A stretch of 64,000 bases of DNA from Bdellovibrionota bacterium. GTDB taxonomy: Bacteria; Bdellovibrionota; UBA2428. The stretch lies in the NCBI GenBank assembly GCA_044347615.1, contig JBIKUK010000001.1, positions 299,863 through 363,862 on the forward strand, given 5' to 3'. The notes beneath the pieces were generated by a model, which ran no database searches, was not told the DNA's origin, and saw nothing but the letters and a program-made list of their open reading frames with translations. How positions within the stretch are numbered: the first letter of the stretch is position 1; each line of letters starts with the position of its first letter. This document shows positions 1 through 4,848 of the stretch, one piece after another. The translations under genes were made by a program, and so were the position numbers.

Positions 1-2286
1 TTTGCAATGTAAAGATTTAAGCTTTGTCCCATGTCGATCCATTTTTGGCGGCGACTTGCGCAGTCAATTAACCATTGTGGAGCTACGTCGAAAGCTGTTT
101 TGTAGAGAGACTTGAGGTTTGCAGGGATACTTGTAATAGGCTCGAGATTTCCATCGTATCTCTTGAGTTCGGAAATCATTTCTTGATTCCACAATCCAAC
201 AGCCTTTAAATCTTCTACAAGATACGGATTGATCACAGTGAATTCACCCGACATGTTGCTTTTTACAAATAAGTTTTTATAAGTAGGTTCAATAGACTGA
301 GTTGTTCCCGCAATGTTTGAGATTGTTGCTGTCGGAGCAATCGCCATACAGTTACTGTTTCTCATTCCATTTTGCTTGATCGCTGCACGAACAGGTGACC
401 AGTCAAGTTTAGCCTTGCTGTCCATATCGACTTTGTCTGCTCCACGCTCTTCGCTGACGATCTTGATCGAATCTACAGGAAGAATTCCCTTGTCCCAGAG
501 AGATCCTTTGAAGCTTGCGTAAGATCCACGTTCTTTTGCAAGTTCTGTAGAAGCAAGAATCGCGTAGTAAGAAATTAATTCCATGCTCTCATCTGCGAAG
601 TCTACAGCTTGAACGCTATCGTAAGGAATTCTCATCATGTAGAGAGCGTCTTGGAATCCCATAAGGCCAAGACCTACTGGGCGATGTTTTAAGTTTGAAT
701 TTTTTGATTCAGGAATAGGGTAGTGATTTTGATCGATCACGTTATCAAGCATGCGCATTGCAACTGTGACAGTGCGAGCGACCTTTTCACGATCCAATCC
801 CTTTCCAGGAATCATATGATTTTGAAGATTCACAGAACCCAGGTTACACACAGCGATTTCATCTTTGTTTGTATTCAAAAGAATCTCAGTGCAGAGGTTT
901 GAACTGTGAACAACTCCTACGTGCCCTTGAGGAGAGCGAAGGTTTGAAGGATCTTTGAAAGTGATCCAAGGGTGACCTGTTTCGAAAAGCATAGAAAGCA
1001 TTTTGCGCCAAACTTTGACGGCTTCTACTTTGCGGAAATTTCCGATTTCACCACGAGCTGCTTTGGCTTCATATTCAACGTAAGCTTTTTCGAAAGCTTT
1101 GCCGTAGAGATCGTGCAAGTCAGGAGTTTCTTCTGGAGAGAAGAGCGTCCATTCTGCATTGGCTTCTACTCGCTTCATGAACAAATCTGGAATCCAGTTT
1201 GCAGTGTTCATGTCGTGGCAACGGCGACGATCGTCACCTGTGTTTTTTCGAAGCTCGAGATACTCTTCAATATCGATGTGCCATGTTTCGAGATAAGAGC
1301 ACACTGCTCCTTTTCTCTTTCCACCTTGGTTCACCGCAATGGCTGTATCATTGGCAACTTTCAAAAACGGAATCACGCCTTGTGAGCTTCCGTTTGTTCC
1401 TTTGATGTGAGCGCCAAGTCCGCGCACAGGTGTCCAGTCGTTTCCAAGTCCACCAGAGAACTTAGAAAGAAGGGCGTTGTCTCGGAGAGATTTGTAAATA
1501 TCTCCGAGGTCATCAGGAATTGTTGTGAGGAAGCAAGAAGAGAGTTGGGGGTAGAGGGTTCCAGAGTTGAAGAGGGTAGGGGTTGAAGAAACGTAATCAA
1601 AAGAAGAGAGCAAATCGTAGAATTCAATCGCACGTTTTGTTCTTTCTTCTTTTGTCTTTTCAATAAGAGCAAGGCCCATACCTACACGCATCCAAAACAC
1701 TTGAGGCAATTCGATACGACGGCCTTTTACGTGAATGAAGTAACGATCGTAAAGAGTTTGAAGGCCAAGGAAGCTGAATTTCTCATCGCGCTCAGGCTTG
1801 AGGGCTGCAGCGATTTGATCGAGAGAGAATTCAGTTTTGAGACGTGGATCAAGGCGACCTTCTTGAATTCCAAGATCTAGGTAAACAGGAAGGTACTGAG
1901 TGTAAGCTTCTTTTCTTTCTGAAATTGTGACGAAATGTCCGAGGACTTCATCAAAAGTAACTTGCAAAAGAAGACGTGCTGTTACGAAAGAGTAGGCTGG
2001 ATCGCGCTCGATAAAAGCACGTGTTGCCATAATGGCCGCTTGCATGAGACTTTTCTTAGGCATTCCTTCGTAAAGGGCCTTGAGGGTTTCGTTTAAAACA
2101 AGGTTGACGTCGACTTCTTTGGAAAAGCCAGTGGCTGCTTCTTGGATAATCTGACGAACCTTTCCTTCGTTAAAAGGAACAACGCTTCCGTCGTCTAAGG
2201 TGATGGTCTTGATGGTGCCTGAAAACCCCTCTGTTTGAGGTTTTTCGTTTTCAAGGGTAAAAGAATTCTGCGTGTCCAACGACATC
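1..2286 (-). CDS. nrdA: ribonucleoside-diphosphate reductase catalytic (alpha) subunit; about 760 N-terminal codons present, 3' end runs off the window
   Basis: Own minus-strand translation: ATG at 2286-2284 preceded by AGGAG; motifs [52 protein letters not shown]. Absent from the ORF track because there is no in-frame stop inside the window. Class (Ia vs other) not resolved. Confidence 0.85.
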
Positions 2287-2423
2287 GTTATTGTCTCCTC
2301 TTTCTTAAAGGTGTCTAAATTTTTCTTGGGGAACCTGGTTTGCTGTTGGCTTCTCCCCGTTGATTAGTTACAACAGCTACCGGTCCACTTGGGCCCTTTT
2401 TCAAGGGCTCTGAAATCAGAGTC

Positions 2424-2470
2424 ACACAACATATAGACGGATTCAAGGTCACATATGGCCATATATTGTA
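2424..2470 (-). promoter_or_regulatory. candidate NrdR-box-like palindrome pair overlapping a TACAAT -10 element upstream of nrdA
   Basis: Two AT-rich palindromic elements (acacaacatatag at about 2424-2436 and ccatatattgta at about 2459-2470) spaced about three helical turns apart and resembling the NrdR box consensus; the second overlaps a TACAAT hexamer on the nrdA strand. Confidence 0.3.
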
Positions 2471-3579
2471 ATTTTTAAAAAAAAATCTAAAAAGCCTCTA
2501 AACGCGCCGCTTGCAAAAAAGAGCCGATAACACGCCGCGACTTCTGCCCAAATTTTGCATTTTGAGCAAGCAATTTTTTATGGCCTCGCGTAATTTGACA
2601 CCTTCTTTAATTGAAGTTCCGTTGACAGATTTGTCGAAAAATTCTTTGAGGATTTTGTTTTAATTTCTTCCTAGCTACTTAGAATACTTCAAAGAAACGA
2701 GTCGCAAAAAGCGCAGGCATTTATCAGAGAAAGAGTCGGTGCTACTGGAGGCAGAAGCTAAACTTTTTCTTGCGTCTCTTTGGTGAAGATCATTTCCTTT
2801 GATTAATTCACGGGTTTTTGCTGGAAGATCTTCTTTTGTACGAGAAAGCCAATTGTTGATTGATCTAAATTCTTTTTCTAAGAATTTATTCGTATATTTG
2901 ATGGCTTCTTCGTATTCATCACTATCATTTTTAGGATTTCTTGCGAGAGTTTCTAGCAAACAAAGTAGGGCCTCAGGGTGGGCTTTGAGTGCTTCATGTC
3001 CGTATTGTGCAAGCAGGTCAAACCCCCAATAATTAATTTCAGAGGATAAGAAGTTTAAAGCGGGTCTGAGTCGGGATTCTAACGGTGGGTAGTTAAAGTT
3101 GAGCTGAGGATTAGTTAAACAGAGCAGAGAATTCCGCGAAAAGCGAAGCTAAGCTGCTCCACGAGAGCCGATAGCTTTTCAAAGAATTCGAGTGGCGAGA
3201 AGACGGCGACAGTTGTTCCATTAGTCCATGGAGTTTTGAGGCGGTAGTGTATGTCACCGTTATTTGCTTAGGAGAGTCTTTATTCACTTACAGCAGGCCT
3301 GTCGGTGTAGCGAACTAATTGTTCGAGACTTGCTTTGTTGGTGCTCCAGGCGGAGACAGCTCTAGGCGGTCGTTTTGTTTGGGGTGCTAACGACAGCGCA
3401 AGTGCCGCCTGCACTGCTAGGAATTCAAACGGACAACCTTCATTTACAAACATAAAGATTTTTATGCTGGAGAACTATAAACTCAAAGTGGTCCGTTCCT
3501 AAAAGGGGAGAAAATCTATATCTTTTTTCATAGCTGAAACTAATAGGGTTTCGGTATTCTTAGATCTTTTATTAATAGC

Positions 3580-4653
3580 CTAAGTGAGTCTACTCTTTTC
3601 AACTACTTTATCAATCCAATAAGAATAAGTATCAAGAACTTTATTTTTAGAAAATTTCTTAGCTTGAATCAGTCCTTTTTCTTCATATTTTTTCCTTAAA
3701 TCAGCGTCTGTTAAAAATTTAACCAAAGCTTCTTTAAATTCAGAATCCTTAACAAGCACTCCAGCATCCCCAACAACTCGAATCAAACCCTCATTATCCA
3801 AATTTTCGGTAGCAAGTACCGGCAAGCCACAATTCATAGCTTCCAAATAAGGACGACCAAAACCCTCATATAAAGAAGGATATGCAAAAACCCAAGACTC
3901 TGAGAAAAACTTTAACAACTTTTCTTTATCGACATTTAAGAAAAATTCAACATTTGGATGTTTTGGACAAAAATCTGAAACCATTATCAGTCTAGCATCT
4001 GGGATTTCGAGTAAAACCTCCTCAGTAAATCGTTCAAACAAAAACTTTCCCCTTTTTCTACCATGCCATGTCCCCACAAATAGAACAGTAGGGTTTTGAG
4101 CTTTTATTGAAGAAGGTTTAAAATCTTCTTCAATTACAATATTATCTACAACAGCATCTGCCTTATAAATTTTTGATGAATTTATACCACTACATAGAAC
4201 ACAATCAGCTAACCTAGAGGATAACTTCTCGAAATAAGTAATAACTTTTTGTGAAATCTTTCTTTTAAAAGAGGTAGCATATCTGGACTCGTAAAATGCT
4301 GATCCTTGAAAAATACGAATTGATTTAATTTGTCGTCTAAAAAAAAACCAATCATCCCCTGTGAGAATTATAACATCATAATTTTTAAAGTTTAGAAAAT
4401 TAAGAGAAACTGGCAAAATTAATAAACGGAAAAATTTATCTGGTAATATTTTTGAAAGTCTATAAAATATTTTTTTCGTTTTAAAAGTAAAAACTTCGGA
4501 ACCTCCAAAAATATAATAAAATGTCACGTTATAGCCAATGTTTTGTAAGCTAGAAGCGAGTGTAAGATTAGCTATATCCACTCCTCCAACCCTCTTCCCA
4601 TTAACAAATGGAAGCGCTGAACCAAAGAAAGCAACTTTTATACAATCTTTCAT
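3580..4653 (-). CDS. family 1 (GT4-like) glycosyltransferase
   Basis: 357-aa ORF; C-terminal EGFGRPYLEAMNCGLPVLAT motif (E-x7-E type) typical of retaining GT-B glycosyltransferases; markedly AT-rich compared with neighbours. Confidence 0.8.
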   Translation of the reverse strand: MKDCIKVAFFGSALPFVNGKRVGGVDIANLTLASSLQNIGYNVTFYYIFGGSEVFTFKTKKIFYRLSKILPDKFFRLLILPVSLNFLNFKNYDVIILTGDDWFFFRRQIKSIRIFQGSAFYESRYATSFKRKISQKVITYFEKLSSRLADCVLCSGINSSKIYKADAVVDNIVIEEDFKPSSIKAQNPTVLFVGTWHGRKRGKFLFERFTEEVLLEIPDARLIMVSDFCPKHPNVEFFLNVDKEKLLKFFSESWVFAYPSLYEGFGRPYLEAMNCGLPVLATENLDNEGLIRVVGDAGVLVKDSEFKEALVKFLTDADLRKKYEEKGLIQAKKFSKNKVLDTYSYWIDKVVEKSRLT

Positions 4654-4774
4654 TTTAACACCGTTTTTATAAGTCTATAATATCGCAGGTGACATTGATT
4701 TCCTTGAAAGAAAATAAAAATTATTACAGCTACAACCGGAATATTTTAAAAGAGTGTCGTAGAAAGCCCAGACT

Positions 4775-4848
4775 TGGAGGCGGCACCCGGATTTGAACCG
4801 GGGGTGAAGCTTTTGCAGAGCCTTGCCTTACCACTTGGCTATGCCGCC
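4775..4848 (-). tRNA. tRNA-Cys (anticodon GCA), CCA encoded
   Basis: Minus strand reads GGCGGCA-TA-GCC..GGC-A-AGGCT-CTGCAAA-AGCTT-CACC-CCCGG-TTCAAAT-CCGGG-TGCCGCC-T-CCA: 7-bp acceptor stem, 5-bp anticodon stem with GCA at positions 34-36, T-arm with TTCAAAT loop. Confidence 0.9.

Follow-up and report, generated by a model that had tools for sequence, protein, structure and literature searches.

Probable remnant of an IS91/ISCR-family insertion sequence between nrdA and tRNA-Cys in a Bdellovibrionota bacterium

A GC-rich block between nrdA and a glycosyltransferase gene

The DNA analyzed here is a stretch of 64,000 nt from a Bdellovibrionota bacterium (hereafter, the window). The block under study comprises positions 2960-3579 and lies between nrdA, which the initial annotation had correctly identified as its left flank, and a gene for a GT4-family glycosyltransferase; the interval between these two genes is 1.3 kb. 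The following features were identified in this part of the window:

<1-2285, minus strand: nrdA.
2675-3041, minus strand: small hypothetical gene abutting the element end, with homologs P0005-P0011.
3042-3107, minus strand: oriIS-type terminus of the same element as the transposase fragment below, approximately 65 bp, from alignment, blastn, and nhmmer.
3108-3159, minus strand: deletion junction with an internal loss of approximately 485 bp, based on the spacing in the related copy L001.
3160-3360, minus strand: fragment of an IS91/ISCR-family (Y2/HUH rolling-circle) transposase gene, an internal piece of 67 codons (201 bp); pseudogene.
3361-3440, no strand assigned: GC-rich flank (53.7% GC) that contains a ggtcgtt/aacgac stem.
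3441-3579, minus strand: apparent AT-rich 3' flank of the glycosyltransferase gene (30.9% GC), in which no homology was found.
3580-4653, minus strand: GT4-family glycosyltransferase (Pfam Glycos_transf_1, E 3.9e-18), on the terIS (transposase-upstream) side of the relic.
4775-4848, minus strand: tRNA-Cys(GCA), predicted by both ARAGORN and Rfam; its 3' end forms the right border of a variable stretch (2477-4774).

As had been claimed previously, no ORF of 60 or more amino acids is contained within the block. The longest are of 58 aa (3111-3287, minus strand), 57 aa (3280-3453, minus strand), and 55 aa (3335-3502, plus strand), and the only other ORFs that touch the block enter it from the left (2675-2959, minus strand; 2799-3032, plus strand). 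The lack of a long ORF is explained by the breakage of the transposase gene that is described below. Screening of the antisense ORFs 2799-3032, 3264-3365, and 3335-3502 against Pfam returned no matches.

The GC enrichment that had been attributed to the block as a whole was identified in its core (3042-3440) but not in positions 3441-3579, which are AT-rich. The window has a GC content of 38.5%, compared to 44.5% for 2960-3579 (top 4.6% among 620-bp windows), 48.9% for the core (top 0.24% among 400-bp windows), and 55.8% for 3301-3420 (top 0.3% among 120-bp windows). The adjacent glycosyltransferase gene is low in GC (31.6%), consistent with its initial description. The elevated GC content of the relic is explained by the composition of the element family, which is 48-54% GC (47.8-54.2% in intact elements) as compared to 38.5% in the genome. 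Since an identical 2.7 kb (99.9-100% identity) is present in five contigs from different metagenome samples, the block is not an artefact of assembly.

Transposase fragment, element terminus, and their relatives

Translation of the minus strand of the core in a single frame yields ...AVSAWSTNKASLEQLVRYTDRPAVSE*RLS*ANNGDIHYRLKTPWTNGTTVAVFSPLEFFEKLSALV..., and the 67 codons at 3160-3360 correspond to residues ~350-415 of an intact 547-aa relative. The fragment has no frameshift and is interrupted by two nonsense codons, each the product of a GAA to TAA change (...PAVSE*RLS*ANNGD...). It was recognized by the Pfam profile Y2_Tnp (PF04986; 39.6 bits, E 7.4e-10, gathering cut-off of 20.9), of which it covers only positions 101-163 of 183. 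Among NCBIfam profiles, the best match was to ISCR clade Ia (NF052416; E 7.6e-17, profile positions 321-387 of 509), with the IS91 model also matching (E 3.5e-4). A search of 5.8 billion proteins recovered four PF04986 proteins that are 79-85% identical to the fragment with E values down to 1.6e-26, the latter for P0001/P0002, which are identical at 55 of the 67 residues. Copies encoded in Bdellovibrionota MAGs and metagenomes are 76-82% identical to the fragment at the amino acid level. At the DNA level, the fragment is 78% identical to L001, ungapped and in codon register, and was detected by nhmmer with an E value of 3.7e-51.

The limits of homology at 3160-3360 were the same in tblastn, protein profile, and DNA profile searches, and none of these detected the rest of the transposase, including the N-terminal Zn_Tnp_IS91 domain and the HUH motif. 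When the full-length protein of the intact relative was searched against the 64 kb with tblastn, a single match was returned (residues 350-415, 76% identity). Searches for an extension of the fragment comprised tblastn with a word size of 2, Smith-Waterman alignment with shuffles, a six-frame protein profile, and a DNA profile built from four complete elements; outside of 3160-3360 these returned only a weak, non-significant scrap of the C-terminus, such that strong homology is limited to 201 bp. No intact transposase is encoded anywhere in the 64 kb. Because only residues ~350-415 of 547 remain, with two in-frame stops and no complete ORF of the kind expected of an active copy, the copy is a relic rather than a functional member of the family. 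Screening of 2460-3600 against plasmids with blastn and of viral contigs for the transposase returned no matches.

One terminus of the element is preserved in the relic, finishing on the minus strand with ...CGCTTTAAACTTCTTATCCTC, the last base of which is at position 3042; read into the flank, this is ...CCGACTCAGACCCGCTTTAAACTTCTTATCCTC followed directly by TGAAATT. Seven related copies that were aligned at their ends all stop at (C/T)CTATCCTC, 190-230 nt past the transposase stop codon, and copies that reside in different flanks are alike up to this motif and diverge directly after it. ISVsa3/ISCR2 ends at the equivalent place (GGCGTTTATTCTTCCTATACG). The terminal 21-mer of the relic fits the family consensus, and the terminus is 84% identical to L001 826-862 over 37 nt (blastn). 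When a profile of the ends was searched against both strands of the whole window with nhmmer, the best match was the terminus at 3042, in the right orientation, with an E value of 0.023 for a profile of close relatives and 0.085 for a profile of all relatives. With such E values, this short match is convincing mainly because its position and orientation are right. Thus, the relic appears to carry the terminal motif of an oriIS-type end, with moderate statistical support.

The bases that directly follow the end are TGAA in the window and GAAT, TAAG, TTCT, TAAA, or TTTT in the relatives. In characterized members of the family, the tetranucleotide target next to oriIS is CTTG, GTTC, or GTCC (PMC13181058). 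TGAA is absent from these targets reported for IS91, IS801, and IS1294, a rule that may not be that of the present lineage.

The spacing between the fragment and the element end is 606 nt in L001 but 121 nt in the window, which indicates that ~485 bp have been lost. A second short piece of the transposase C-terminus may be present near this junction, at approximately 3144-3188 (RLSWSSLASLFAEF compared to RISWAKLLSRVFALDM); this weak similarity was recovered by tblastn with an E value of 0.046 in a 1.8-kb search (shuffle p = 0.03) and had a non-significant score of 0.7 in hmmsearch.

Related copies of the element occur in Bdellovibrionota MAGs. An intact relative was identified in MAG ABC2.20 (L008 4990-6633), where it encodes a protein of 547 aa with Zn_Tnp_IS91 and Y2_Tnp domains, an architecture that it shares with the ISVsa3 (ISCR2)/ISCR group. 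Like ISVsa3, for which the end is given above, the Bdellovibrionota elements end ~200 nt past the stop codon, with the pattern ...GYTT(T/A)...YCTAT(A/C)C.... Unlike a close member of that group, however, the intact relative is only ~40% identical to plasmid ISVsa3 (ISCR2) transposases over 90% of its length, and it scores 383 bits against the model of ISCR clade Ia (NF052416), which does not reach the curated cut-off of 925. These two values place the element in a separate, undescribed lineage. Judged from these comparisons, the relic is a dead copy from an ISCR-like Bdellovibrionota lineage that falls outside of the curated clade Ia.

Truncated copies that retain the oriIS end of ISCR2 are common next to sul2 and floR, where they lack the 5' part of the element. 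Similar 5'-truncated, oriIS-keeping copies were identified in MAG ABC2.20, which encodes an intact ISCR-like element along with three or more 99%-identical, 5'-truncated copies that keep this end (intact and truncated copies at L008 4990-6825 and 10413-11219; L012 2130-2941 and 6940-7574), indicating that truncation of this kind is common in the lineage. The window fragment and two of the copies in MAG ABC2.20 are truncated at points no more than ~40 nt apart (residues ~340-350), which hints at premature termination of rolling-circle transposition or at an internal ter-like site. The window locus also differs from ISCR2 in that its host is an environmental Bdellovibrionota bacterium rather than a gammaproteobacterial plasmid, in that resistance genes are lacking, and in that the copy is dead (67 codons with two stops).

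With IS91, IS801, and IS1294, the element shares the HUH/Y2 transposase superfamily. Those elements have two different ends, oriIS and terIS, with oriIS located 3' of tnpA and no inverted repeats (PMC13181058), and the present element resembles them in carrying its oriIS-type end 3' of tnpA and would likewise have two different ends. In contrast to them, it matches the IS91 model less well (fragment, E 3.5e-4; intact relative, 83 bits against the equivalog cut-off of 125), the relic is flanked by TGAA rather than CTTG, GTTC, or GTCC, and no orf121-like gene is present.

Gene turnover between nrdA and tRNA-Cys

The block forms part of a variable stretch of 2.3 kb (2477-4774) bounded by the conserved nrdA leader and the 3' end of tRNA-Cys. 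Synteny between the host and MAG ABC2.20 covers nrdB-nrdA on one side and tRNA-Cys, a Zn-ribbon gene, groES, and groEL on the other, with DNA identities of 82% (groES-groEL), 76% (nrdA), and 96% (tRNA-Cys). The content of the interval differs in the three relatives compared:

Window, 2477-4774: a small ORF, the IS relic, and the AT-rich GT4 gene.
MAG ABC2.20, L102 5486-8743: a Na+/H+ exchanger gene and two hypothetical genes.
Third relative: only ~0.5 kb.

The occurrence of different genes in related Bdellovibrionota genomes indicates that the interval between nrdA and tRNA-Cys is a hot spot of gene turnover. The stretch at 2477-4774 looks like a site of insertion and deletion that has received the glycosyltransferase gene, the IS, and the small gene that is now 5'-truncated. 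As variable and compositionally mixed DNA directly 3' of a tRNA gene, it resembles tRNA-adjacent genomic islets; unlike those, it is without an integrase (none was identified between 2286 and 4774) and without a direct repeat of the tRNA-Cys 3' end, for which the far border has only short matches at chance level. An inverted match to the tRNA-Cys 3' end (11/12) at 3402-3413 is also at chance level. Screening of metagenomes with nrdA recovered only relatives that are 61-66% identical and that lack the synteny, the IS, the glycosyltransferase, and the small ORF.

The glycosyltransferase gene was probably acquired horizontally. Some 200-bp windows within it have a GC content as low as 23.5%, and the gene is located directly 3' of tRNA-Cys.

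The left part of the block (2960-3041) is the stump of the small gene, which adjoins the IS end. Its frame is open from 3041, with a first possible start (TTG) at 2959 that would yield a product of 94 aa, and this 94-aa product is called in L004 and L005. In a tblastn search, residues 24-165 of the 166-aa homolog P0007 aligned to 3013-2681 with 49% identity. Because ~23 N-terminal residues and the ATG are missing relative to P0007, the gene appears to be 5'-truncated at or next to the insertion. The family of the small gene (P0005-P0011) matches no Pfam or NCBIfam family. Its members have a highly conserved C-terminus (...DKCLRFLRLVSLKYS[KHN]) and N-termini that are mosaic, including a signal peptide (P0008), unrelated leaders (P0007 and P0010), and a 29-aa indel, and their genes are found in different genomic contexts. 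A 29-mer that adjoins the IS end upstream of the small ORF (TGAAATTAATTATTGGGGGTTTGACCTGC, 3013-3041) matches L018 7411-7439 at 28 of 29 positions (also L019 and L020). In these three, the 29-mer lies 38 nt downstream of the homologous ORF, in an order permuted relative to the window, and the ORF follows a tRNA-Leu(CAG) gene.

Upstream of nrdA, a stretch of 59 nt (2418-2476) is 94.9% identical to L102 5427-5485 in MAG ABC2.20, compared to only 76% for nrdA coding DNA. This stretch is probably a regulatory site conserved in the nrdA leader, and by eye it resembles candidate NrdR boxes (cacaacatataga ... cacatatggccatatattgt).

Origin and present state of the relic

We interpret the block as what is left of an inactivated IS91/ISCR-family insertion sequence and thus as ordinary genome debris, with a probability of about 0.9. 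Remnants of foreign DNA had been among the explanations first offered for the GC-rich block, and the decayed transposase fragment and element terminus in its core bear this out. The interpretation draws on what was observed at the locus, namely homology, stop codons, the terminal motif, GC values, and variable synteny. Elements of the IS91 family transpose by a rolling-circle mechanism that starts at oriIS, 3' of tnpA, and ends at terIS, and adjacent DNA is co-transferred when termination fails (PMC13181058; PMC6218425). In the most likely history, the element would have inserted into the small gene or beside it, such that its oriIS end came to lie at 3042. Deletions and point mutations would then have cut it to the present relic of 320 bp, with the loss of ~485 bp that had separated the fragment from the end and of everything upstream of residue ~350, leaving DNA that has no function today. 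Insertion in situ and arrival together with neighboring DNA are indistinguishable in the genomes compared.

It is improbable that the relic is not inert, that is, that its oriIS-type end is nicked in trans, mobilizing DNA on the terIS side including the glycosyltransferase gene, or that it provides an outward promoter for the small ORF. The terminal 21-mer that matches the family consensus is compatible with such activity, as the final 82 bp of IS91 are sufficient for oriIS function and failure of termination mobilizes adjacent DNA (PMC13181058), and outward promoters have been described in the oriIS region of ISCR1 (PMC6218425). The arrangement of the locus is also suggestive, in that the relic is immediately flanked by a compositionally foreign glycosyltransferase gene on its transposase-upstream side and by the small ORF past its oriIS end, and in that the related MAG has several 5'-truncated copies that share this end. 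However, there is no intact transposase in the 64 kb, a scan of the minus strand at 3042-3160 yielded no sigma-70-like promoter, the glycosyltransferase gene differs in composition from the IS (31.6% versus 49% GC), neither this glycosyltransferase nor the family of the small ORF is linked to the IS at any other locus, and the identity of the locus in five samples gives no sign of ongoing mobility. The lack of an intact transposase in the window and of a called promoter makes it unlikely that the relic functions today, be it as an origin that is used in trans or by supplying an outward promoter. Equally doubtful is the specific scenario in which a working oriIS end allowed the glycosyltransferase gene to be delivered, and would allow it to be moved again, through one-ended rolling-circle transposition for which the clade's intact ISCR-like element acts in trans. 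If true, it would mean that ISCR-style gene capture acts on cell-surface genes in environmental Bdellovibrionota and that the clustered 5' truncation points (residues ~340-350) mark an internal termination site.

The initial annotation had also raised a structured RNA as an explanation for the block and had proposed an Rfam scan as a check. Rfam 15 at gathering thresholds identified only the tRNA-Cys (4775-4848, minus strand) in the whole 64 kb, and a scan of 2400-3700 on both strands at E ≤ 10 returned only chance matches to snoRNAs and sRNAs (E 4-8), none of them relevant. ARAGORN predicted no tRNA or tmRNA in the block, in agreement with the failure to match it to tmRNA by inspection. The folding energy of the whole block is ordinary relative to shuffles (z = -1.5 for the minus strand and 0.0 for the plus strand), and the block proved homologous to a decayed protein-coding gene, the observation that had been named in advance as speaking against an RNA. 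The stem between ggtcgtt (3368-3374) and aacgac (3389-3394) does exist, with 6 bp and a loop of 14 nt, but the block that contains it folds no better than shuffled sequence.

A structured non-coding RNA in the GC-rich block, whether an sRNA, a riboswitch, or a ribozyme, is therefore very improbable. The block is indeed enriched in GC within an AT-rich genome, the minus strand of 3361-3579 folds slightly more stably than shuffled sequence (z = -2.4; 4 of 200 shuffles fold as well), and an imperfect long hairpin is present in addition to the ggtcgtt/aacgac stem. However, Rfam and ARAGORN gave no match there on either strand, the z-scores of the whole block are ordinary, and the transposase fragment, in codon register, accounts for every base across half of the GC-rich core. 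The mildly low folding energy of 3361-3579 is attributable to the imperfect hairpin downstream of the glycosyltransferase gene; on neither strand does this stretch or the block as a whole have convincingly more structure than shuffles. This hairpin (minus strand, ~3499-3423; AACGGACCAC...GGTTGTCCGTT) lies ~80 nt past the glycosyltransferase stop codon and is not followed by a U-tract, and a promoter/terminator scan identified no terminator-like site after the gene.

That the block is ordinary intergenic DNA with a host-gene or chance similarity is effectively refuted, since the match, although short (67 codons) and without a counterpart in the syntenic relatives compared, reaches an E value of 1.6e-26 against 5.8 billion proteins, is found independently by two curated profiles (Pfam and NCBIfam), extends to 78% DNA identity in codon register, and is accompanied by the element's own terminus, correctly placed and oriented, as detected by the end profile.

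The importance of the relic as an IS91/ISCR-family remnant goes little beyond annotation, in which the block should be labeled as an IS91/ISCR-family transposase pseudogene with an oriIS end. It does mark the interval between nrdA and tRNA-Cys as a site of gene turnover in this Bdellovibrionota lineage, and it points to an uncharacterized ISCR-like element, ~40% identical to ISCR2 and with intact copies in related MAGs, that may be of interest to those who catalog rolling-circle IS outside of resistance plasmids.

On the transposase-upstream side, nothing recognizable was identified in the most GC-rich part of the block (3361-3440), with no protein, DNA-profile, or Rfam match and none in the viral contig scan, which leaves ~80 bp of the GC increase unexplained. 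This flank may be further diverged DNA of the element. Two likenesses noted by eye, to a 'DDPLAGIQAAS' stretch and to an HUH stretch, were rejected as neither was significant (p ~0.09). A terIS end was sought in 3361-3579, which has no significant similarity to the regions upstream of tnpA in L008, L009, L010, or ISVsa3. The 57-aa ORF that spans part of the fragment and this flank (3280-3453, minus strand) is annotated as a hypothetical protein in metagenome pipelines (L004 9148-9321 and L005 2109-2282); the ORF combines part of the disrupted transposase frame with upstream sequence without a match.
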